Positions 633 to 59,729 of a stretch of 64,000 bases of DNA are shown here, one piece after another. The number at the start of each line of letters is the position of its first letter. Positions within the stretch are counted from its first letter, which is position 1. The stretch is from Octopus vulgaris. Taxonomy: Eukaryota. Location: the NCBI GenBank assembly GCA_951406725.2, contig OX597814.1:201252001-201316000 (forward strand). Reading direction: 5' to 3'. The position numbers and the translations under genes are program-made. The notes under the pieces are model-generated. The model made no database searches and had not been told where the DNA came from. It worked only from the letters and a program-made list of their open reading frames with translations.

Positions 633-706
633 TGGCCAGCCATGAGACTTGAACTCACATCTCTATGATTACATGTCAAGTGCTTTACCACTAAGCTAAA
701 CTGCCC
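633..706 (-). pseudogene. tRNA-like sequence (TGT anticodon, Thr-like pseudogene or SINE head)
   Basis: Minus strand gggcagtttagcttagtggtaaagcacttgaca-TGT-aatcatagagatgtgagttcaagtctcatggctggcca: A box, B box, T arm and imperfect acceptor stem. Confidence 0.55.
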
Positions 707-1754
707 AGTAACGAATCCTTCTGCAATTTTAGAATTTATAAATTTAGCTCTATAAGACGCTAATGTTAAATTTAAATTATGATGAAAACAAACAAATAAA
801 GTTTGCATTAGAAGAATTGAGATGTATTGAAAGATACAGAAATTCTTTGTTTTGGATATCAAGTCAAAATTGAATTGTTTCATTTTTATTCTTATGTGTA
901 GATATCAATTCCCAATATTGTTTTATATTTGCACAAAAGGAACTGACATAATCCTGCTAATTAATCCCTGGTAGTCATGTTCAGTATATTTAATGATTGA
1001 ATAACAAAAATAATTATCTTCAACAGTTCACTAAACAGCTTTTATATGCATAACAAATAATTTTTTTTAAATGCATGTGATGTGTCTGAATAAAGAAATA
1101 GTGAAGTTATCAAAAGATTGATTTGAATCCAAACATATTTGATGTGAGGAAAATTATCTTATTACATATTAGCCCAAAGAAACATACCTACCAGCCACAA
1201 TAAGAAAGATTCCTTAAAGAGAACTGAGCTCCAAGTTTTTTTATGAACCTACCAAAACAGTCTGGAATGTTCCATGCAGTTTTTAGGCACAGAAACTAAA
1301 CTTTTCTCTTTGACTGTCACTGAATATCACAAACTGACACCAAAGATGATTCCCTGGAGAAAATGTCAGTAGGCTTATAGCACAGTTCCGGTCAATATTA
1401 CCAAATAAAGAAATATTTGCCAAAGATTTTGCCAAAGATTTTAACTTTTGATGTTTGAATTCGAGGAAGGCTGTCTGTTATATTCCGAGAGTGGGTATCA
1501 CATTACAAGTTTCCACTAACACCAGCTGTATTTGATGATATTCACAAAATATTTTACTTTAAGGCATATAGTTAGGATTCTTTTCCTAATCCCCCATACT
1601 TTACAATGCATTGGAGACAATGTTTTTATATCAGAGTCTGTGGGTCAATGGCTATGCTTCAATCTTCAAAGTTTTTATTCATTGTTGAAATAACGAACAC
1701 AAATTCAGAATTATTTACATTTGATGAATATTTGTCCTCATCTCATTTGTTGTT

Positions 1755-1800
1755 AACACAACGTTTCAGCTGATATACCCTCCAGCCTTCATCAGGTGTC
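1755..1800 (-). ncRNA. Minimal type I hammerhead ribozyme motif
   Basis: GACAC-CTGATGA-A-GGCTG-(10 nt)-CAGCT-GAAAC-GTT^GTGTT; stem I GACAC/GTGTT, palindromic ACGT stem III. Confidence 0.75.
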
Positions 1801-2105
1801 CTGGGAAAATTTCGAATCTGGGTTCTCGTTCCTAAGGTATTTTCCCAATGTTATTATTATGGCATAGTGGTTAAGAGCACGGGCTGCCAGCCCCAAGATT
1901 CTGAGTTCAATTCCAGACAGTGACCTGAATAATAATAATGACATTGGAAAAATACCTTAGGAATGAGAGTCCAGATAAATTTTCCCAAGACACCTGATGA
2001 AGGCTGGAGAGTACATCAGCTAAAATGTTATGTTAACAACAAACAAGATGAGGACAAATATCCGTCAAATGTAAATAATATAAATAATTCCTCATCTGTT
2101 AAATA

Positions 2106-2449
2106 TTGCTGAGACCCCCTTCGGTCATGACTGACTGTGAGATTGCACCTAGAAAGTTACTCACCCAGGCACAAGTCCGGGCAAAGTTGTTTATGGAAGA
2201 CCAGCAGTCACCCATGCATAACAGCCTCCCCTCTCCACGCCACCAGTGTTATCTAAGGGAAAGGCAAAAGGGCCGATACAGCTTGGCTCCTGTGACATTG
2301 CAACTCATTTCTACAGCTGAGTGAACTGGAGCAACGTGAAATAAAGTATCTTGCTCAAGAACACAACACACAGCCCAGTCAGGGATTCAAACTCACAACC
2401 TCACGATCGTAAGCCTGACGCTCTAACCACTAAGCCATGCGCCTTCACA
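2106..2449 (-). mobile_element. tRNA-derived SINE family C, nested in the SINE-H tail
   Basis: Minus-strand head gtgaaggcgcatggcttagtggttagagcg...gagtttgaatccc; second copy at 20084-20413; flanked by tgttaaatat/tgtcaaatat. Confidence 0.8.
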
Positions 2450-2764
2450 TGTCAAATATAGAACTGCAAAAATTCAGAATTGTGATTAAAAAGACGTTCT
2501 GTAATAAATCAGCAGATACTGATAAAATAACTAACTCATTAATTTTCCTCACGCACTGATTAATAAATAATACATTTTTGCATTTGTGATATGTAAAAAA
2601 TTATTTAGATTTCTTCAAATAATTTTCTAAAATGAGATCAAGCTCAGTTTTTCATTCAGTGAAATATTAAAAATTATCCTAATATCCAAGTTCCTCTTCC
2701 TCACATTCTCCACAGGATGTTTTTCTTATCCATTTTGATTAACTGAATAATGACGTCAAATGCT

Positions 2765-3137: not shown

Positions 3138-3777
3138 TGATACGAGGTCAGTTGAGAAAAAAATTCTATGACCCAGTTTCGTGGTTTGATGTCGGACAGA
3201 CTGTTATTGGCTTTTATCCTGTCATTTGTAGGTAAGATTAATGAATTAGGAAGTGACATTTTGGATCCCTACGGTCAGGGAAAGTTTAAGAAAAAAATAA
3301 ATCTACTACCCTTTAAAATGCGGTGAGCTGGGAGTTCCTCTAGTCAGTTGGCAATAGATCAGTTGGCAGAGGAGTTGAGTTGGCAACAGGGTAGTTGGCG
3401 TGAGGGTTGATGCAGAGATGACAGTTGGCAAGAGGCGAGAAGGAACAAATCATTTCATTGTTTGTTTGATTATCTGAGACTACAAAATATCCAGTATTTC
3501 TTATAATAAACAGTTAAGAATGTTGTCACTGTATTGCATTGATTTTTTTTTTTATATGCTCCGTTCACAATATTTTGATATTAAAGCTTTTCTTAGCTGG
3601 TAAAAAATCATCATCATGGCTGTGTGGTAAGTAGCTTGCTTACCAGCCACATCGTTCCGGGTTCAGTCTCACTGTGTGGCACCTTGGGCAAGTGTCTTCT
3701 ATATAGCTTTGGGCTGACCAAAGCCTTGTTAGCAGATTTGGTGACGGAAACTGAAAGAAGCCTATCGTATATATGTA
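2765..3777. repeat. Direct duplication of about 340 bp (2765-3135 and 3443-3777) including the SINE-A 5' half
   Basis: gaacaaatcatttcattgtttgtttgattatctgagactacaaaatatccag... is present twice, nearly identical. Confidence 0.85.
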
Positions 3778-14376: not shown

Positions 14377-15789
14377 AGGTTAGCATAAGATGAAAAAAAA
14401 TATTGTCAATCTTTACAAATTTAATACATTTCTTATGTCAGTTATAAAACCAGGAGAATGAAATCATGAGGCCTATTCCTATTATATTGATGTCCAATAA
14501 TTGTTAAAATTTGCTGTATTTAGAAAATATTTTGCATTAAAGATTATTTTGGGAAGCAGTCTATTTGAAATTGAAACAGCTGACAATAGCAGCTATGCAA
14601 ATTGCACTCCTGCTAACTATAAACTATTTCATTTTGCATCATATTTCCTCTGGGAATTTTCTATGTTGAACTGGTAAAATCTGTCTTTGATACAATAATA
14701 TAATGATATTTTTCCCCCATAAAGTTGTACCTTGTGTTCAAAGTTTCCATTTTAATGTATAATCTAAGGTTAATTCTAGGATAAAATATATTTTTATCAT
14801 TATGTCATTCTTCTAAAATTTTAAAAATATTCCTTTCTGCATAATTTTAATTTATCACAAAACTGATATTGCATAGCTCGAAAGTTTATTGTTGAAATAT
14901 TTCCATTGAATTTATTATTTCATGCGTATTTCTGCCATTGTTTATTACTTATTTTTTTAACTTTTTATTGTACCTATGATACAAACAACATTTTGTAATA
15001 TTGTAATGAATCAGTGAAAACAAAATTACAGAAATTACAATCCTATATAGAAAATATGAAAAGTATAAGAGATCATAAAATGAAGGTGTTTATACACAAG
15101 AGACTCAGCTTGCTGGGTAGTATAATGGAAATTTTTTATTTGGTAGAGAAAAGAATCAGAGAAAACATATTAAAAGAACAATTGTTTGCCAGCAATTTGG
15201 AAGCTAATGGCAAATATCTCTCTAATTACACTTTGTTACAAATGGACCAATGAAATATTAAGGCAATAAAATGCTTCCAGTTTATGATGGGTTTTATTTA
15301 AAAATATGATATTTGTGCATGCGACTTAAACCAGCAATAGAGAGTCTCTGTGCAGTCATTTAAACTACTAGAAATAGCAGCCAAATATACCTGAAGTTCT
15401 AGAATCACATGGCATAATGTAGTTCGAGATATACTAAGGCAAAAATGCTAGAATGGTTATGATCATAGGTCTACTCCATGAGGACCTTCTTAGGGTTAGC
15501 AGCAGCAGCAACAGCTGTTGTTGCTGCTGCTGCTGCTGCAACTACTGCTACTGTTACAACTACTGCTGCTGCTCCTACTACTACTGCTGCTGCTGCTACA
15601 TAACAATAGTGATTTTTCTCTCTAGTTCTTTGTTTTAACAAATCTGAATGAAAGGTAAACTAATGTCAACAAGATTTGAACTCAAAATGCAAAAGACTCT
15701 CACAGGTGCCACACTGGGTTCTCAAATTATGGAATGAATTTTAGGGCTTATAAATCTAAAATTCAATCCTAAAATTCACTCCATAATTG

Positions 15790-16055
15790 CCCACAGGCAT
15801 ATGGCGTAGTGGTTAAGAGCATGGGCTACTAACCCCCAGATTCCAAGTTCGATTTCAAGCAGTGACCTGAACAATAACAACAACAATAATAATAACAACA
15901 ACAACATTGAAAAATACCTTAGGAATGAGAACCCAGGTTTGAAATTTCCCCCAAAACACCTGAAAAAGGCTGAAGCGTATATCAACCGAAACGTGTTAAC
16001 AACAAACAAGATGAGGACAAATATCTATCAATTGTAAATAATGTAAATAATGTAT
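15790..16055 (+). mobile_element. SINE-H full copy (decayed HHR at 15955-15997)
   Basis: tggcgtagtggttaagagc...aagttcgattt head, (AAC/AAT)n, aaataccttaggaatgagaacccagg...aatgtaaataatgt tail. Confidence 0.8.
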
Positions 16056-19553: not shown

Positions 19554-20502
19554 CCCTTTGCCTGCCATGAGCCCCATTTGGGGATCTGCTAAAAACAGTC
19601 TCTCTGCCGGTTGTTCGTTGTATTTGAATTAAATTGCTTATGTACATTGCATTTGCAGAGGTGTGTTTAATATCTTGTTGTTAAAACTTTGCCATTATTA
19701 GCTCTGGCTAATCCTAGAGGACATTTTATGTCATAAATCACAATGTTTGAACTACAAAAATATTGACTGTTTTGAAAACGTTTTTTTTTTTTACTGTTGT
19801 GTCTGGGGAGAGTCATTTTCTTTTAATACACGAACTCATATAAAGAATCTTGCAAACCAAATCCAAAAACGAAATATTTTATTTTACATTTCCCATCTAT
19901 ATCAATCATTGATATTTCATACGCATTCGCATTTGATACTACAGTTTCAAAAATATTAAAATATTTATTATTGAGATTGAATAGAAAAGGATAGATATGC
20001 GTTTTTCCAGTGACCCCCATTTGGGTCTTCTCAAAAAATTTATCATAATTTCCAAAATAATTCACATATGAAGAAAATTTAAATGCTGAAATCCCCTTCG
20101 GTCATGATACAGACCATGGGATTGCACCTAGAAAGTTACCCTCCCAGGCACAAGACCAAGCAAGGTTGTTTATGGAAGACCAGCAGTCACCCATGCATAT
20201 TAGCCTCCCCTCTCCATGCCACCAGTGTTATCCAAGGGAAAGGCAAAGGCTGATACAGCTTGGCACCTGTGATGTTACAACTCATTTCAACAGCTGAGTG
20301 AACTGAAGCAATGTGAAATAAAGTGTCTTGCTCAAGAATACAACACGGGATTTGAACTCACAACCTCACGATCATAAGTTTGATGCTCTAACCACTGAGC
20401 CATACGCCTTCACAGAAAATTTAAACACCATATATTATTTTAACTCCTAAAGACACCTGGCAAAGCCAAAAAATAGGAATAAAAAATTTGGCAGTTAATG
20501 GG
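19554..20502. mobile_element. piggyBac-type non-autonomous element
   Basis: TTAA-CCCTTTGCCTGCCA ... TGGCAGTTAATGGG-TTAA. Confidence 0.6.
20084..20413 (-). mobile_element. SINE family C with 12-bp TSD
   Basis: agaaaatttaaa at 20072-20083 and 20414-20425. Confidence 0.85.
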
Positions 20503-40039: not shown

Positions 40040-40041
40040 GC

Positions 40042-40131
<90 letters not shown>

Positions 40132-40385
40132 GAAGAAGAAGAAGAAGAAGAAGAACAACAACAACAACAGCAACAACAACAACAATAATAATAACAATAA
40201 GAACAATAGCAACAACAACAACAACAACTACAACAACATCGAAAATACCTTAGGAATGAGAACCCAGGTTCGAAAATTCCCCAAGACACATGAAGAAGGC
40301 TGGAGGGTACATCAGCCGAAAAATTGTGTTAACAACAAACATGATGAAGACAAATATCCGTCAAATGTAAATAATGTAAATAATT
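40040..40385 (+). mobile_element. SINE-H microsatellite and tail (decayed HHR at 40285-40330)
   Basis: (AAT)n(AAG)n(AAC)n-catcgaaaataccttaggaatgagaacccagg...gacacatgaagaaggctgg...cagccgaaa. Confidence 0.75.
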
Positions 40386-41023
40386 TAAATAATGAGTAAA
40401 ATCTAATTATATTTAAAAAAATCTAATTGTATGTTATGTTGTAAAACAAGAGTTTAGTGAATTTGATGTGAGGAGTTGAATATCCAATGTTTCGAACATT
40501 GTCCTTCTTTAGCAAAACATTGAAAAGAGAAAAATTAATGAAAGTCAGCAGAGTTTTTAACATTGTCTAAGTTAAAAGAAAATGGCTGCAACTGAAAAGA
40601 ATACAAGACTTTGTTAGTTTCATATGTGAACAGGAAATGGTGAGAGAAATAATGTAAAATGGAAGAAGGAAATGGAAATAGTGAAATGAGGAGAAACAGA
40701 CGAAGTTCAGAGTGAGATGAAGGGAAAAGATGAGGAGAGAAAGGAGTTGATGGATGAGAAAGGATTTAAGGAATTAAGAGGAGGTGTCAGAGTAGAAAGG
40801 AAAATGTTTGTTTAAATCTGTTGGTGACATCATGACCAGTTCGGATATGAAGCATTGTTCTTTCCATTTTCCTGAAAATGAGGAACCATATATGCATGTA
40901 TATGTGTGTGTGTGTGTGTGTTTGTATATATACATACATACATATATATATATATATAACTTTGATAGGTTTTGGCCAGTATAGGCACAGGCCATGTCAC
41001 CACTGGTATATACATATACATAT

Positions 41024-43149: not shown

Positions 43150-45320
43150 CTATTTGTGACACCAATTCCTAAATAGGTACTGAGTTTCTATGCATATCAC
43201 TGATGGAAGAATCACTGCTCTCTCTCATCTGGGTGTCTGCTATTGACAAGACCAAAGAAGGCCAAAATCACATGATCTGGTTGTCCTGGCGATAAAAACA
43301 CAAGTGCTTGCATGCACCACACGTCCATATGAGAGGTTCTCTCATGGTAAATAACACAGTATTGTGTGTTCTAACACAACAACCACTTTTAAGTGAGAGG
43401 TTCTCTCTTGGTAAATAACACAGTATTGTGTGTTCTAACACAACAACCACTTTTAAGTGAGAGGTTCTCTCATGGTAAATAACACAGTATTGTGTGTTCT
43501 AACACAACAACCACTTTTAAGTGAGAGGTTCTCTCATGGTAAATAACACAGTATTGTGTGTTCTAACACAACAACCACTTTTAAGTGAGAGGTTCTCTCT
43601 TGGTAAATAACACAGTATTGTGTGTTCTAACACAACAACCAGTTTTAAGTGAGAGGTTCTCTCATGGTAAATAACACAGTATTGTGTGTTCTAACACAAC
43701 AACCACTTTTAAGTGAGAGGTTCTCTCTTGGTAAATAACGCAGTATTGTGTGTTCTAACACAACAACCACTTTTAAGTGAGAGGTTCTCTCTTGGTAAAT
43801 AACACAGTATTGTGTGTTCTAACACAACAACCACTTTTGAGTGAGAGGGTCTCTCATGGTAAATAACACAGTATTGTGTGTTCTAACACAACAACCAGTT
43901 TTAAGTGAGAGGTTCTCTCATGGTAAATAACACAGTATTGTGTGTTCTAACACAACAACCACTTTTAAGTGAGAGGTTCTCTCATGGTAAATAACACAGT
44001 ATTGTGTGTTCTAACACAACAACCACTTTTAAGTGAGAGGTTCTCTCATGGTAAATAACACAGTATTGTGTGTTCTAACACAACAACCACTTTTAAGTGA
44101 GAGGGTCTCTCATGGTAAATAACACAGTATTGTGTGTTCTAACACAACAACCAGTTTTAAGTGAGAGGGTCTCTCATGGTAAATAACGCAGTATTGTGTG
44201 TTCTAACACAACAACCACTTTTAAGTGAGAGGGTCTCTCATGGTAAATAACACAGTATTGTGTGTTCTAACACAACAACCAGTTTTAAGTGAGAGGGTCT
44301 CTCATGGTAAATAACACAGTATTGTGTGTTCTAACACAACAACCACTTTTAAGTGAGAGGTTCTCTCTTGGTAAATAACACAGTATTGTGTGTTCTAACA
44401 CAACAACCAGTTTTAAGTGAGAGGTTCTCTCATGGTAAATAACGCAGTATTGTGTGTTCTAACACAACAACCAGTTTTAAGTGAGAGGTTCTCTCATGGT
44501 AAATAACACAGTATTGTGTGTTCTAACACAACAACCACTTTTAAGTGAGAGGTTCTCTCTTGGTAAATAACACAGTATTGTGTGTTCTAACAAAACCACT
44601 TTTAAGTGAGCGATAAATATTACCTTTTGATATTCATGTCACTAAAGAGGGAAACATTGTTACAATCTAAGAATGTTAGAATATTACTGGCTGCAGCTTA
44701 ACCAAAATAAATTTTTAAACCTATCCTTTATAACCTTTTTAAAACGGTATTAACAGCATAAATCAGGCGAAAATATTTCATCTCAGAAGCAAAGCTGGGT
44801 TAAGAAGTCAGATCCTTAAGAATTTATATCCAAATGTAAGCCACATTCTCAGAAGTTATTAAAATTGAAAAACTTTAACACACGACAGGATTTTGTGGGC
44901 TTCTATAGGCATCAATACACGTAACTACCTTTTTTAATATTCCTCTCATTTAAAGAAAGACCTTATTTTCTCTTATTTGGGTAGGAAGCTGGAACTTTCT
45001 ATTAGAAGGTATAGAGAGGAAGGTATGAAGAAATTGAATACGGTAATAGTATGTCACATATCTACTTCAAATTGGAAAATACTTTTCAGTTCACCACACA
45101 TAATATTACAGTCGAATATGATTTATATTCTTATATTACTATAATTATACCTCTACATCATTTTTCTCCATGACAACACTTAGTTGTCTTCATGTATATA
45201 TACATATATAAATATACAATATTTGACTATGGGAGCCTCACTGTTGCAGGAACGAATTACAGCATTTAGCCTGGGGACATTCTTCATCATGCTGATACAT
45301 TTTAAAGTTACAAAAAAAGT
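43150..45320 (+). pseudogene. Highly decayed Helitron PIF1-helicase remnant
   Basis: Frameshifted motifs in the expected order: DGRITA (GGRTAH-like), LVV-W-D, LLSE-R*ILP (GDFRQ.LP-like), LYPNV...RIL, SPH..L. Confidence 0.45.
43331..44610. repeat. 64-bp minisatellite, 20 units
   Basis: Unit gagaggttctctcatggtaaataacacagtattgtgtgttctaacacaacaaccacttttaagt; unit starts at 43331, 43395 ... 44547. Confidence 0.95.
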
Positions 45321-47252: not shown

Positions 47253-48298
47253 CTATAAAGAAAGAGAAGGAGAGATCTGAGAGATATCGTGATCTAATTG
47301 GTCCTATAAACGAGTGAAAAGAGCAATCATTTAAGTTTTCACCTGACGACACGAGGGTCACTACAAAACTATTTATGTGTTAAAACATTTCTTACACAAT
47401 TTAACTAATTTCTGCAACTTGTTACTAATGTTTTGGTTTCATGAAACCATTTAACAACCAGTATCATATGTTCAACAAACTAATAAAAAATAAAATAAAT
47501 AAAATAAAAATAGATGGACTTTAGTTTTAGAAACTTACAAAAATAATGGCATTATATCTACTTTGAATGTTTTAGTTTCTTACTAATAAAATATCAAAGA
47601 AAATTTTTTATTTGATTACAATTATTATACCGTTGGGTATTTTATCATTTTATATACGTTTGTTTTCCTCACAAACTTTTTGTATATTTTATTGAGAAGC
47701 AGAGTTTTCAACACGTTTCTACGATGGATTATGTTACTTATATGTTTCCTTGTTTTTTATCTTTTATCCAATCTCAAAGAAAGTGTTTCCTAAATCTCAC
47801 AGACCTCTTGTCTCTTGTATATGCTTTTGTTTTCTTGAAAACAAAATTTGTTGGCCGGATGAAACCGTTTTTAATTTATCGGATAAAAGAAGTAAATGGA
47901 TATAAGTGTAAAATGCTGAATCAAACTGACTGATTGAAATGTGTTTAAAGGATTACAGTTCTGATTAGGAGCTTAACAGTTTTATATTCAGATTTAATCC
48001 CACCTCTGTTTATCACAGCTGATAACAGAGGATAGATATTGTGAATTTGTAGTATACAGAAAAATGATTATATTAAACTGATAGAAAATAAATAAAAACA
48101 CCCAAAAAACAAACAATTCAAACTGCAACTAATTCTCATCACCATCATTTAACGTCTACTTTATTCATGCATGCATGGGTCAGACAGGATTTGTTGATGG
48201 CCGTGGGCATGTGGCGTAGTGATTAAGAGCACGAGCTACTAACTCCTAGATCCTGAGTTCGATTGCAGGCAGTGACCTGAATTATAATAATAATAATA

Positions 48299-48336
<38 letters not shown>

Positions 48337-48399
48337 GTAATAATGATGATGATGATGATGATGACGATGATGATGATAATAATAACGATGACGATAATA

Positions 48400-48540
48400 A
48401 TTTAACTTAAAAAAAAAAATGAACGAACTATTGAGTTTGGTTTAATGGCCTACCAATGTATACTATGAGTTTCTTTGCCCTAGGAGTCGGGAAGACACTC
48501 GGCAAGAAATGGAAGCAAATTTGAAAGAAGAAAAAAAAAG
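48400..48540 (+). mobile_element. 5'-truncated 3' UTR-only copy of the R4/Dong LINE
   Basis: Near-identical to 51070-51215; followed by (TAA)n. Confidence 0.85.
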
Positions 48541-48689
48541 TAATAATAATAATAATAATAATAAAAGAACATAAAACAATATCATTGATGATGATGATGA
48601 TGATGATGGTGATGGTGATGATGATACTGATGATAGTAATAGTGGTGATAATGATAATAATGATAATAATGGTGATGATAATAACAATA

Positions 48690-51215
48690 AAAAGCCGACT
48701 ACGGCTGCTATAATGGTACGATTATAATTGTAACAGCAATGATGGCCGTCTCCCCGTGAGCCAATCAAAGCTCAAAAATGATAACATTATCGTAGCACCA
48801 AAATGTTTTTGGAAACTAAAAGGAAAATTAAATCAGTACACCAAATCGCTTGTCCTATGGTTAATCTGGAAGCGCGTCCCCCAGGGAAGAGCCAGCCTGG
48901 GATCGAAAAGTCATCAACTGGCACAAACTCTTCTCTGAATACAGACATGGATGGTCACTTGAATGGGAAATTCCCCAACTCGAGCCCTCCAAGTTCACCA
49001 CCACAGAAAGAAAAATGTAAGCGGAACAAATGGACCCGAGAAGAGTATAAAGAAGTAATATACGCTTATTACTATGCATTAGGTAGGCCATCTCAAGAGA
49101 GACACACCGCAAACTCTTACAGTATATGGAGAACATGGAATCAAGACAGTAGGCCCTATTTGGACGAGAACAAATTGGCAAATGTGAGGAGGGATATCCT
49201 TAGAAATAACAGACTCACAGACAGTGAAATAAGCGCGATCAAGCACGCAACGGAAAATGATATGAATATAAGACACAAAGGAAATGAAGAATCAGATGAA
49301 CAGTATAGCCCGCCACGAGGCTTAATTGAAAGACTGTGGAATACGAATCTCCAATTATACCACTCTAATGGAGTACTTGCCTCAGAAAATATAAACTTCA
49401 ACTGTGGAATTTTTCAAGGTGACTCACTTTCACCTTTAATATTCTGCATAGCCCTAATACCCTTTACAAGTGAATTAAACAGAACAGGGTGTAGGTATAA
49501 AATTGCCAATAAAAAAATAAGCCATCTATTTTATATGGATGACTTAAAACTCTATTAAAGGCCTATTGCGCACTGTGAAAGCATTCAGCGATGACATCGG
49601 GATGGAGTTTGGGCTTGAGAAGTGTGCCAAGGCCACTTTCCAGAAAGGGAAAGTGAAGACCACAAATTCAGTCGAGTTAGATGTTGACACAGTCATAAGA
49701 GAGCTTGAGCAAGAACAAACATACAAATGTTTAGGGATAAATGAAGGCTCTGGTATTCAGCATGCAAGCATGAAAGAAAAGATCAGGAAGGAATGTTATA
49801 GGAGAGTTCGTGCAGTCCTGAAATCTGAACTAAATGCACGTAACAAGGTGTTAGCTATAAATTCCTTAGCAGTTCCAGTTGTTACTTATAGCTACAATGT
49901 GTTGAACTGGAATATGAGTGAAGTAAAGAATATAGATAGGAAAATACGCAAGCTGCTGTGTTGTAATAGGATGCACCACCCAAAGGCAGACGTAGATCGC
50001 CTTTACCTTCCCAGAGCCCAAGGAGGCTAGCTTACAAAACAACCACAATTAGACTGGCCAAATATCTTGAAATAACGAATGACTGGATACTAAAGCTCAT
50101 GGAAAATCACGAGAGATGAAAGAAGCTTCATTCTATCATAAAGGAAAGCAAAAAATTTGCTATTGATCTCGTGCAGGATACCCAAACTGAACAACCCGTG
50201 GGAAGTACGGCAACTATTGTTGCAAAGAAGGTGAAAATAATGGCAACGAAAAAAGCGCACGAGCAATTGGCTGAGAGGTGGGAGGAGAAACCTCTGCACG
50301 GCAAATATGTGGCCCGTAGCAAACAAGCTGATGTTGACCAGAAGCAAACCCATCAGTGGCTACGGAGCTCAGGGCTAAAAGCAGAGAGCGAAGGTTTCAT
50401 CCTGGCTGCTCAAGATCAAAGCCTATTAACCCGAAACTACCAGGTCAATGTGATGAAAAATGGAGCAGACCCAAAATGCCGATTCTGCAACGACATGATT
50501 GAAACAGTGGACCACCTAATCTCTGGATGTAAAGTCTTAGCACCAGTGGAGTATAAATTAAAACATGACAGAGTTGGCCAATATCTACACTGGCTAATAA
50601 GTCGCCATTACAATATCAAAACTGCCGACAAGTGGTATAATCACCACCCTGAAGCTGTAACTGAAGGAGAAAATGTAACGATTCTGTGGGACTTTCCAGT
50701 ACATACAGACCGAAACATCAAAGCCAATAAACCGGATATTGTTGTGAAAGACCAAAACAATAAAGTTTGCTTATTGATCGACATGAGCATCCCCTGTGAC
50801 CATAATATCTCAGCGAAAGAGTTTGACAAGCTCAGAAAATATAAAGACCTGCTCATTAAAATTGAGAAAATGTGGCATCTCAAGGCAGTTACAATACCAG
50901 TGATCATAGGAGCACTAGGAATGATCAAGAAGGGAACCGAAAATTATATGAGAATGATCCCTGGCTTACCATCCCTGCAAGAAGTGCAAAAGGTTGTCTT
51001 AACTGGTACATCACACGTATTGAGAAGAGCATTGTCGATGTGAGAACTATTACTACCCATGTATTTTAATTTAACTTTATTTCTATAAAAAAAATGAACG
51101 AACTAGTGAGTTTAGTTTAATGGCCTACCAATGTATAGTATGAGTTTCTTTGCCCTAGGAGTCGGGAAGACACTTGGCAAGAAATGGAAGCAAATTTGAA
51201 AGAAGAGGAAAAAAA
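48690..51215 (+). mobile_element. R4/Dong-clade non-LTR retrotransposon (RT, CCHC, restriction-like endonuclease), internally deleted and frameshifted
   Basis: KWTREE N-terminus; GIFQGDSLSP, HLFYMDDLKL, FGLEKCA, HHPKADVDRLY, AAQDQ, CRFC..ETVDHLISGC, KHD, KPDIV..LID, KYKDL. Confidence 0.9.
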
Positions 51216-51419
51216 ATATAATAATAATAATAACAACATCAAAGATTACCTTAGGAATGAGAACTCAGGCTCGAAATTTCCCCAACACACCTGATGAAGG
51301 CTGAAGAGTATATCAGCCAAAACGTGTTAACAACAAACAAGATGAGGACAAACATCCGTCAAATGTAAATAATATAAATAATGTAAATAATATACCTACA
51401 CACATATACATATGTTTAG

Positions 51420-53304: not shown

Positions 53305-54906
53305 ATTAAGAGGCACCTGTATTGGGCCATGTAAAAACCACCTGTATTGGGTTACATATAAAGAACTTGTATTGGTGTTATGTGAAAAGCATCAGTGTTG
53401 GTGCCACATACAATGTACCTGTGCTAATATCAGGGCCACATAAAAAATGCCCTGCACACTCCATATATTGGTTGGCAGTAGCAAGGGTATGTAGCCATAG
53501 AAACCAAACCAAATCAGAGAATTACAGCCTCGTGCAGCCCTCCAGCTTGTCAGCTCTGGTCAGGTCACCCAGCCCATGTAAAACGGACGTTAAGTGATGA
53601 TGATGATGATAGTCACAGCTCCAAATGCTAATCACATGTCTGCTGGATGAAGGGCTGACTTAGTTTAAGCATCAAAATTTACACAGATATACAGCTAAAC
53701 AACACAGAAAAGTGGGTCAATAATGATGTGTACCACCTACAAAGCCAAGTGATACAAATGAAATTGGATGCAGAAAATGGTGATGCAATATTTTGAGAGC
53801 CTCTACTAAAATAGTCAACCATGTGATTTAGTCAATGGAGTACGAAAATATGAAATTATTCCTGAAAAACAGATTCTGCTTTGATCTAAAATCCTTCTAA
53901 ACCAACGAAAAACTACATCCTTCAAGCAATGTGGAATTGAATATCTTAAATATTAATTCAATACAGTTCTAAAAATCTTCAGAACCATGTAGAAAGATAC
54001 AGCGATGCCAGTTATGTAAAGCAAAAATAATTATTCTCTTCTTCTTCTTCTTCTTCTTCTTCTTCTTCTTCTTCTTCTTCTTCTTCTTCTTCTTCTTCTT
54101 CTTCTTCTTCTTCGTCTTCTTTTTCTCCTCCTCCTCTCCTCCACCTCCTCCTCCACCTCCTCCTCCTCCTCCTCCTCCTTCTCCTTCTTCTTGCCATACC
54201 ACAAGGTAGAATATGATAGAACAAACTGATTTCATTTTAGTTTGTGAACAACTACAATCTTCGAGCAATGTTAAATTGAATATCTTGAATATCCAACCAA
54301 AGGCTTGTGAGTGGATTTGGTAGACTGAAACTGAAAGAAGCCCATATCATGTATATATATATATATAAAACCAGCTTAGAGAAGAAGAAGAAACGAAACG
54401 AAACGAAACGAATCGAATCGAATCGACGCGAAGGCGCTCAGTCATACAATAGTGTAATAAATACAAACATATATGTACGTACCTACATCTACATGTATAT
54501 ATACATGCATATATAAATATATATACGTGTGTACAGGACACCAAAAATAGACGTAGAACTCAACGAGAAACGAAAACGTAAAAACAGTATGGAACGGACC
54601 ATTCCTTTAACAACGAAAAAAGAGAGTACAAGACAACTACACAAGGAAAAATCCCCTTCATCAGCCGTCCCTAGTTCAACTCCAGTGTGTTTCGAAGGTG
54701 AGGACAGAACACATCTCGTCGAACTAATCCTTCCTGCGAAAGAATTAAATAAAATTCCTTTGCAGAGGGGTAAAAACAAGGAAAAAAATGTGACAAAATC
54801 AGGACGTAAAAGCAATACAATTAAAAACAAATACAAAATAAAAATACAATTACAAGAAATACAGTACAAGAAGGAATAGAAACAGGACAGGAAAACAAAT
54901 AGAGGG

Positions 54907-56556: not shown

Positions 56557-57520
56557 AACGACGACGATGATGATGAGGTGGAGGAGGAGAAGAAGAAAAA
56601 GAAGAAGAAGAAGGGGAGGAGGTGGAGGAGAAGAAGGAGAGGAGGAGGAGGAGGAGACGAAGAAGAAGAAGGAGAAGAAGAAGAAGAAGAAGAAGAAGAA
56701 GAAGAAGAAGAAGAAGAAGAAGAAGAAGAAGAAGAAGAAGAAGAAGAAGAAGAAGAAGAAGAAGAAGAAGAAGAAGAAGAAGAAGATAATTATTTTTTGC
56801 TTCACATAACTGGCATCGCTGTATCTTTCTACATGGTTCTGAAGATTTTTAGAACTGTATTGAATTAATATTTAAGATATTCAATTCCACATTGCTTGAA
56901 GGATGTAGTTTTTCGTTGGTTTAGAAGGATTTCAGATCAAAGCAGAATCTGTTTTTCAGGAATAATTTCATATTTTCGTACTCCATTGACTAAATCACAT
57001 GGTTGACTATTTTAGTAGAGGCTCTCAAAATATTGCATCACCATTTTCTGCATCCAATTTCATTTGTATCACTTGGCTTTGTAGGTGGTACACATCATTA
57101 TTGACCCACTTTTCTGTGTTGTTTAGCTGTATATATTTGTGTACATTTTGAGGCTTAAACTAAGTCAGCCCTTATCCAGCAGACATGTGATAAGCATTTG
57201 GAGCTGTGACTATCATCGTCATCATCATCACTTAACGTCCGTTCCCCATGGGCCGGGTGACCTGACCAGAGCTGACAAGCTGGAGGGCTGCACGAGGCTG
57301 TAATTCTCTGATTTGGTTTGGTTTCTATGGCTACATACCCTTGCTACTGCCAACCAGTTTAAGGAGTGTGCTGGGTATTTTTATATAGCCCTGATATTAG
57401 CACAGGTACATTGTGTATGTGGCACTAGCACTAGCGCTTTTCACATGGCACCAACACAAGTACTTTAAACGTAACCCAGCACAGATGGTTTTTACATGGC
57501 CCAGAACGGGTGCTCTTAAT
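53305..57520. repeat. Long inverted duplication (53305-54251 vs 56321-57520)
   Basis: Reverse-complement arms including (TTC)n/(GAA)n; spacer about 2 kb. Confidence 0.9.
55400..56080 (+). mobile_element. Three tandem SINE family B variant copies
   Basis: Each unit ggc.agctggcagaaac.ttagc...ccttgtgcc.agagtggaaaag. Confidence 0.85.
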
Positions 57521-59484: not shown

Positions 59485-59729
59485 CAATACAATCCGGCAG
59501 TCACAGCAGACAATTCTTGCCTGTTTACTGTTACAATGACGAATGCTTTTATGGACCATGCGTCCTTATGAGAGATTCTCTCAAGGTGAATAACACAATA
59601 TTGTATATTCTAACACAACCTCCTCGTTAAGCTGGAGATTAAGATTACTTATTAGTATTAATACTGCTTCAGTCACTATTAATTACATTTTAAGAACTTT
59701 TGTAATATTATAACGAGCGAAGCAGCTAG
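59485..59729 (+). mobile_element. Internally deleted Helitron remnant with a CTAG 3' end
   Basis: GAC GAA TGC...ATG GAC CAT (WDECxMxH-like), GCT GGA GAT (AGD); ends acgagcgaagcagCTAG|t; resembles the 64-bp unit. Confidence 0.5.

Follow-up and report, generated by a model that had tools for sequence, protein, structure and literature searches.

Hammerhead ribozymes in Penelope-like elements (PLEs), the inverted geometry of PLE insertions, retrozymes, the Schistosoma repeat SMalpha and RNA polymerase III (Pol III) promoters in the long terminal repeats (LTRs) of TRIM elements are all already known; what is new here is a PLE whose pseudo-LTR (pLTR) would itself act as a short interspersed element (SINE). 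We describe this element in Octopus vulgaris, starting from a stretch of 64,000 nucleotides (assembly GCA_951406725.2, contig OX597814.1, positions 201,252,001 to 201,316,000 of the forward strand; hereafter the window), in which an initial annotation made from the letters alone had marked positions 1701..2481 as a tRNA-headed SINE ending in a PLE-type hammerhead.

Among the described systems, the anole PAc/Poseidon PLEs (PMC11167929; PMC8557442) are alike, in the available parts of both sources, in an open reading frame (ORF) that starts inside the pLTR at the hammerhead, an inverted 5′ copy, a one-sided tail of 30–40 bp and two 3′ end classes. Unlike these Poseidon PLEs, the octopus pLTR carries a tRNA-derived head with A and B boxes followed by (AAT)n, its 5′ ends are fixed at this head, and its copies have no common TTTT on the sense strand. 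The head with A and B boxes, the fixed 5′ end, the length of 250–400 bp, the tens of thousands of copies and a 3′ part common to an autonomous partner are all reminiscent of tRNA-derived SINEs (SINE2). Unlike SINE2 families mobilised by a long interspersed element (LINE), however, the octopus unit has as its partner a PLE that also carries the head, its microsatellite is internal, its 3′ ends are PLE priming sites within coding sequence, and ~60% of its loci are inverted pairs.

Schistosoma SMalpha/Sjalpha (PMC6765202) is likewise a SINE-like repeat in which a Pol III promoter is followed by a hammerhead, and the available text describes tandem copies with cleavage in cis or trans and names no autonomous partner, whereas the octopus unit has a PLE-type minimal hammerhead, mostly single or inverted copies, and an identified parent PLE. 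Non-LTR retrozymes (bioRxiv 10.64898/2026.07.22.740005) are also non-coding, hammerhead-bearing pLTR derivatives, and rare head-less octopus arrays (C2:2734203-2736029) fit this description; retrozymes are, however, defined as tandem arrays, and the accessible part of that study mentions no tRNA head or Pol III promoter and covers no mollusc. Finally, the TRIMp3 elements Cassandra, Helenus and Ajax (PMC10886601) have a Pol III promoter derived from a small RNA inside the terminal repeat, for which the available text proposes an origin by SINE insertion, but these are non-autonomous LTR elements, while the octopus host is a PLE whose promoter-bearing element encodes protein.

The repeat is the pLTR of a Penelope/Poseidon-type element

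The repeat is the whole pLTR of a Penelope/Poseidon-type PLE, and not a separate SINE with a borrowed tail. Along the element, the ORF stop is followed by a 32-nt spacer, the tRNA-like head, (AAT)n, and a tail that corresponds to the first ~60 codons of the ORF. This order was found in the flank of a tail match (L029), where a PLE frame with reverse transcriptase (RT), thumb and GIY-YIG regions is followed after its stop by the spacer, head, (AAT)n and tail, and the head also follows the stop in all 25 stop-reaching loci among 29 further ORF-anchored loci (the other 4 end before the stop). Loci anchored at the N-terminus display the order tail, extension and ORF, with the tail in frame with the ORF. 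A homolog (P0003; 847 aa, 55% identical) aligned from residue 18 across the hammerhead, extension and N-terminus, and tblastn of its residues 18–125 over the tail/ORF junction reached an E-value of 3e-27 in L094. The hammerhead is thereby placed, as judged from these alignments, inside coding sequence, as is described for the anole Poseidon element in the available part of PMC11167929. The initial annotation had named a PLE rather than a LINE as the partner, and this holds, with the tail matching PLE end and ORF and no LINE; its picture of a tRNA SINE that captured a PLE end is overturned, as the head lies within the PLE's own pLTR and the tail is coding sequence.

That this unit belongs to a PLE is virtually certain. 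The ORF matched RVT_1 (E 2.7e-6). A protein search yielded 9117 first-look candidates. The homologs with PF00078/PF26215/PF28514 number 2989, with PF01541 also present in 3 of the 120 listed. The Pfam GIY-YIG profile did not score on the ORF of the pLTR unit, and the endonuclease motif was instead read directly in L029 and L261. In L029 it reads YSIPCSC..YKGET, with two cysteines between GIY and YIG and no upstream cysteine linker. This is the Penelope/Poseidon pattern as given in the available text of PMC8557442 (two internal endonuclease cysteines, CX2-5CxxC linker absent). PLE families A and B of the same genome carry the linker, and in a quick RT tree, built without named PLE references, the ORF and its homologs (the closest, from ENA and Logan proteins, at 55–68% identity) grouped apart from these two linker-bearing families. 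Further Penelope/Poseidon traits of the element are direct and inverted pLTRs, 5′ truncation, the one-sided tail of 30–40 bp, and an ORF start within the pLTR at the hammerhead. As for SINE2 traits, the 3′ end is common to an autonomous RT element, here a PLE rather than a LINE, and the unit is not distinct from its partner with a poly(A) or simple-repeat end; it is a PLE sub-sequence that ends inside the ORF.

PLEs retrieved through the Pfam GIY-YIG profile were considered as partners and rejected, as their ends do not match the tail; none of three other PLE families, compared in 20 loci, matched the pLTR unit. No relatives were found in viral contigs. One separate PLE family (L031-L035, e.g., G000:C16:20835000-20841000) is young, with many intact frames of 781 aa, a cysteine linker, a long upstream frame of ~250–380 aa, insertion in (TA)n, and, on its 3′ side, a hammerhead-like variant whose core has U3-A8; it is Neptune-like and probably active.

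Insertion geometry, copy number and age

At the window locus, the unit lies between identical 12-bp target-site duplications (TSDs) at 1701..1712 and 2470..2481, so that the direct repeats noted initially are confirmed. The left part is an inverted arm (1711..1851, minus strand; blastn 88% against the forward tail) of pLTR tail, i.e., N-terminal ORF codons, with the short 3′ end and no extension; within it, 1799-1707 gave a weak tblastn match to the N-terminus of P0003 (E 0.06). A regex scan placed a minimal type I hammerhead motif with an intact core at 1755..1800 on the minus strand, with a predicted cut between 1760 and 1759. An inverted (AAT)n remnant and the inversion junction (1851..1860, minus strand) abut the head (1858..1929, plus strand), which lacks its first 5 nt and has, by motif and alignment, an A box at 1860–1870 and a B box at 1905–1914; an inverted tail adjoining the head is thus just what had been described. 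The remainder, on the plus strand, consists of an (AAT)n tract (1928..1941) between the head and the predicted start codon, the forward tail (1942..2088) with a likely ORF start ATG at 1963–1965 and a hammerhead at 1989–2035 in which G12 is mutated, and the PLE "tail" extension of ~40 nt (2084..2469). This extension is interrupted by an unrelated SINE of ~343 bp (2107–2449) with its own 10-bp TSD (2097–2106 and 2450–2459), so that the unit 1713-2467, as originally bounded, encloses a foreign insertion. The inserted element, on the minus strand, belongs to an abundant tRNA-type SINE of ~341 bp with a related copy at 20087-20414, and it served as one of our control SINEs.

Genome-wide (2.8 Gb, 227 contigs), we estimate ~56,000 loci (rough range 25,000–100,000) from the 12 loci found in a random sample of sixty evenly spaced 10-kb windows (600 kb in total), and at least 88% of the sampled words of the tail were present in runs of six organisms, with none of the listed holders recorded as RNA. 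An inverted 5′ copy was detected in 18 of 28 and 6 of 12 loci anchored on the tail, in 16 of 30 anchored on the head and in 7 of the 12 random ones, while two control SINEs fetched in the same way displayed one at 1 of 29 loci each. With two duplicate array loci and control self matches excluded, an inverted copy is present at 24 of 40 tail-anchored loci versus 2 of 58 control loci (Fisher 3e-10). TSDs are 12–14 bp long; a TSD score of at least 9 was reached by 26 of the 48 inverted loci, compared with 1 among 143 mismatched pairs of flanks, and both comparisons uphold the PLE geometry of insertion that had been proposed for the locus.

The 3′ ends fall into two classes ~40–45 nt apart, separated by a one-sided extension of ~40 nt, and 38 of 48 head-to-head pairs combine one long and one short 3′ end. 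By analogy, these classes would correspond to the one-sided PLE tail and to the pair of internal priming sites described for the anole PLE. Arms of the same locus were slightly more alike than permuted arms (91.2% versus 89.9 ± 0.3%), and of the letters departing from the majority, 41 of 178 were common to both arms versus 11 ± 2% after permutation. This higher within-locus similarity fits a single insertion event.

A probable tRNA-derived promoter in the pLTR

In the head, the A and B boxes are spaced as in a tRNA, and its best matches among 25 distinct host tRNA sequences were Arg(TCG), Ala and Arg(TCT) (z of 6.6, 6.5 and 6.3, respectively). The 5′ ends of copies cluster at its start. Of 30 copies chosen for a complete head (the locus of the query among them), 28 have their 5′ end at −11..+5 of the tRNA and 2 extend into the ORF. 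In a set of 87 arms (tail-picked, random and from the window), 25 reach head position +6, and 15 of these stop at −12..+6, where the rate of stops within the head would predict ~6% (binomial 2e-12), with 5 stopping at −13..−32 and 5 within the ORF. A tRNA-related head with A and B boxes and a 5′ end fixed at the tRNA start are both SINE2 traits, and the tRNA-derived head of the initial annotation is borne out. Most head-bearing copies probably have a Pol III, SINE-like origin. A run of four Ts (T4) lies a median of 69 nt downstream of 107 short copies, and Pol III RNAs would therefore end in the flank. No such promoter was detected in distant homologs: 0 of 22 of their pLTR regions had an A/B promoter at ≥8.7 bits versus 13 of 30 family copies, in a scan of limited power, as only these 13 of 30 aged copies pass the threshold and one shuffle scored 15.8. 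A regex form of the scan missed the B box in the positive control.

The ORF itself is depleted in Pol III terminators. Over the 2.6-kb unit, no sense-strand T4 was shared by at least 15% of copies (coverage ≥20), and pooled ORF pieces contained 0.2–0.4 T4 per kb versus 1.7–2.4 after shuffling. By comparison, three other PLE families of the genome have 4–9 T4 per ORF (13 in one longer partial stretch), and 80 distant homolog loci contained 533 T4 versus 343 in shuffles, with none in only 2 of 70 informative loci. With the T4 density of composition-matched homologs (3.3 per kb, taken from 64 of these 80 loci), zero T4 has a p of ~2e-4. Transcription of the whole unit by Pol III is suggested because no T4 is common to its copies, unlike in other PLEs, and may well occur; we rate translation of such an RNA lower.

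Our preferred explanation, to which we assign a probability of roughly 0.72, is that a tRNA-derived A/B promoter sits in the pLTR directly upstream of the ORF, and that Pol III would produce short RNAs inserted in trans and, less often, longer ones. Pol III would start ~4–8 nt before the tRNA and yield short SINE-like RNAs, which the RT/GIY-YIG protein of the PLE would insert in trans, while longer Pol III RNAs would occasionally pass through the TTTT-free ORF. By analogy with the anole PLE, priming would take place at two internal sites ~40 nt apart. A Pol III RNA could then serve as template whichever downstream T-run it ended at, and priming from both nicked strands would give the inverted pair. 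A bolder version, which we regard as tentative and lean against, holds that the autonomous PLE switched to Pol III altogether, with a terminator-free 2.6-kb RNA serving as template and as uncapped mRNA (with a tRNA and (AAT)n leader), and that the same promoter in any pLTR led to a PLE-dependent SINE of ~50,000 copies.

Several observations weigh against the preferred explanation. Neither Rfam nor ARAGORN called the head a tRNA (30 head loci for ARAGORN), and Rfam reported neither a hammerhead nor a tRNA at 1701..2481, so that the tRNA and the ribozyme are recognised here by motif and alignment. At a palindrome spanning the start of the tRNA, fold-back or microhomology has lengthened some of the ends at −7, and three ORF-containing copies (L086, L096, L106) have a direct upstream head that runs into a preceding ORF end. 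Given the family's own dinucleotide frequencies and low TT content, zero T4 has a p of only ~0.05. No intact ORF was found among the 150 best protein matches (longest open frame 569 aa), pLTR copies are ~92% identical to the column majority (~8% divergent), and the PLE family may be extinct in this genome. Finally, in one raw-read RNA-seq run from another organism, of which ~6% was read, 10,191 of 12.9 million reads fell on a natural ORF-to-tail copy, evenly on both strands, with no pile-up of starts or ends at the head or the hammerhead cut and no lower depth upstream of the head (505/449 versus 431/390; 342 reads there came from one transcript). In this run, 382 reads break at −7, mirroring the genomic 5′ ends. 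We take the RNA-seq reads to be passenger transcription, which speaks neither for nor against Pol III activity.

The strongest alternative is a weaker form of the same explanation, in which Pol III makes only the short head-to-tail RNAs, the ORF is expressed by RNA polymerase II (Pol II) read-through, and the absence of TTTT has arisen by chance from composition. Under a first-order Markov model, just ~3 T4 per ORF are expected (the p of ~0.05 above), the three ORF copies continuing upstream of the head agree with read-through, and an uncapped Pol III RNA is an unlikely mRNA. We nonetheless consider this restricted form unlikely, as T3 runs are halved too (12 common sites over the 2.6 kb, with the final 778 nt of the ORF free of them), TTC is preferred over TTT in the natural 569-aa frame (16:6 versus 20:17 and 17:13 in two other PLE families), and ORF-containing copies that begin exactly at the head do exist (three: L409, L110/L415 and L416).

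Less probable still, and in our view improbable, is a PLE transcribed by Pol II in the usual way, whose pLTR holds a tRNA-like passenger and whose short copies are plain 5′ truncations that pile up at the head through RT stalling or snap-back, or through an RNase P cut at +1. The palindrome surrounding head +1, at which many junctions fold back, and the missing start site in the RNA-seq run would suit such a scenario, as would the characterised PLE promoters, which are Pol II-like: the available text of PMC2377424 describes a Pol II-type, DPE-containing internal promoter for Drosophila Penelope. However, many ends at −2..−11 adjoin plain flank or distant tail parts without any fold-back, stalling by a folded tRNA would be expected on its 3′ side and not once RT has copied it, and RNase P predicts ends at +1, yet 22 of 30 alignments reach −1 or beyond. 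A Pol II passenger would also leave the missing TTTT unexplained.

The hammerhead ribozyme

The hammerhead column majority (166 copies) is the PLE minimal form by the criteria in the available text of PMC4209133: it has the core, an extra nucleotide before stem II, a G10.1-C11.1 pair, a palindromic 15.2-16.2 and a stem I of 4–5 bp. Distant homolog loci have the same minimal layout after the stop. Scored by a strict pattern, 34 of 166 copies retain an intact core, and the monomer fold was no better than shuffles (z 0 to −0.7). Of the hammerhead core initially reported in the tail, the copy in the inverted arm of the window locus is intact while the other 4 of 5 window tail copies are broken. 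It is also not the end of the element, as had been assumed, with ~50–100 nt continuing past the predicted cut.

The proposed processing of the RNA by the ribozyme is not supported here: most copies keep sequence on both sides of the predicted cut, a variant without the cut site has also been amplified, and no RNA-seq ends were found at the cut. This variant, a 3-nt deletion that removes the cut site, was found in 23 copies of the tail-selected set and in ~1 in 10 copies elsewhere, and often goes together with an additional C that shifts the frame (15 of 20 versus 15 of 47, p 0.003, a comparison confounded by the choice of query). No back-joint indicative of circular or multimeric RNA was present among the joints listed, with a reference that held no tandem junction. 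Under our preferred explanation, the hammerhead derives from the PLE, would cut only as a dimer, and is probably dispensable for the spread of short copies. In the available text on the anole PLE (PMC11167929), cleavage requires the protein, insertion does not need cleavage, and ribozyme-dead RNA inserts normally in vitro.

An independent tRNA SINE with a captured PLE end, mobilised through hammerhead cleavage, could account for the excess of tail 5′ ends just 3′ of the predicted cut (17 of 65 at 93–110 versus 11 at 41–92), for the few derived copies that join or start at 92–94 (L395, L405, L419) and for N7 being the most variable core base (T 78%, A 19%), but is highly improbable and, as regards an independent SINE, largely refuted, since the head belongs to an ORF-bearing element, the cut is spanned in most copies and deleted in many, only 2 of 65 ends lie exactly at 93–94, where stem II or a nearby palindrome offers another cause, and ribozyme-dead anole RNA inserts normally.

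Tandem hammerhead units, a retrozyme trait, were seen at 0 of 12 random loci and occur in rare derived arrays only. One such array, which is retrozyme-like (G000:C2:2734203-2736029; L012), holds ~9 head-less units of ~218 bp, each with (AAT)n, tail, extension and a hammerhead; it also has a short inverted arm and lies as a whole between 13-bp direct repeats, and five distinct units that were compared are ~96% alike. In a second group (L392, L393/L402, L394, L401 and L417, mostly on contig C29), a common internal deletion joins N-terminus position 34 to tail position 9 and gives hammerhead-bearing units of ~276 bp, some in tandem. Recurrent joins at N-terminus position 147 were noted in L395, L399, L408 and L413.

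Other copies and neighbouring repeats in the window

All four loci of the repeat recognised initially in the window are real (blastn E 1e-18 to 1e-48). The second locus consists of an inverted piece of the PLE ORF end with spacer (15725..15759, minus strand; identified by comparison with L029 and L020), followed on the plus strand (15768..16054) by the spacer at 15768-15794, the head at 15795-15871, (AAT/AAC)n and the tail, in which the hammerhead is broken and the 3-nt deletion is present. The third (40044..40394, plus strand) is a long microsatellite with a tail (40236-40394); it had been read as a copy at 40040-40385 with its head mostly lost, and blastn detected no head at all. The fourth, given as 48200-51392, is a real locus divided by another element: the head (48205..48281, plus strand), which begins in a short fold-back at the tRNA 5′ end, is split from the tail (51236..51398, plus strand) by a LINE with a restriction-like endonuclease (RLE) that lies within (AAT)n.

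This LINE (48400-51220) is decayed, with a zf-RVT match (E 4e-4) and a PD..D-type endonuclease motif from which we presume it to be R4/Dong-like, and is preceded by a second copy of its own 3′ untranslated region (~48400-48545). It was considered as a partner of the repeat and rejected, being located inside (AAT)n and having no sequence in common with the tail.

Elsewhere in the window, 634-705 (minus strand) gave an Rfam tRNA match of 38.5 bits, above the gathering score, with no ARAGORN call, and probably represents another SINE's head. At ~2768-2940 and 3447-3620, a flank segment of ~170 bp is locally duplicated along with a neighbouring SINE head. About 20 near-identical 64-bp units stand in tandem at 43202-44717, with a related single stretch at 59532-59628. 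A 347-nt inverted pair (53681-54027 and 56794-57140; 99% complementary, 2.8 kb apart) may be the two ends of a young DNA transposon, or else a further inverted insertion.

Relation to known SINEs and significance

In the literature consulted, including the available parts of cephalopod genome and repeat papers, neither a PLE with a tRNA or Pol III promoter nor a tRNA SINE mobilised by a PLE was described; repeat databases lay outside this comparison. Non-autonomous PLE elements are known in Chlamys, according to the portion of the literature available. The short unit may already have been named as a SINE. Ohshima and Okada reportedly described three octopus SINEs in 1994, and Albertin and colleagues are said to have named a SINE Twin in 2015; the short unit may be one of these.

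Here, a SINE-like family is found together with its identified Penelope-type parent. This suggests a route to a SINE that does not pass through capture of a LINE tail, in which a Pol III promoter is placed in a pLTR, and would provide a PLE counterpart to the idea put forward for TRIMp3. If the lack of TTTT reflects Pol III, the element would offer one of the rare examples of a long reading frame that stays open to transcription by this polymerase. Annotation pipelines would divide it between "SINE" and "Penelope". The tens of thousands of short, two-arm insertions constitute a large natural data set on the PLE insertion mechanism, and the inverted pairs, a few hundred bases long and present at ~50–60% of loci, would be a likely source of double-stranded RNA in animals that edit their RNA heavily.

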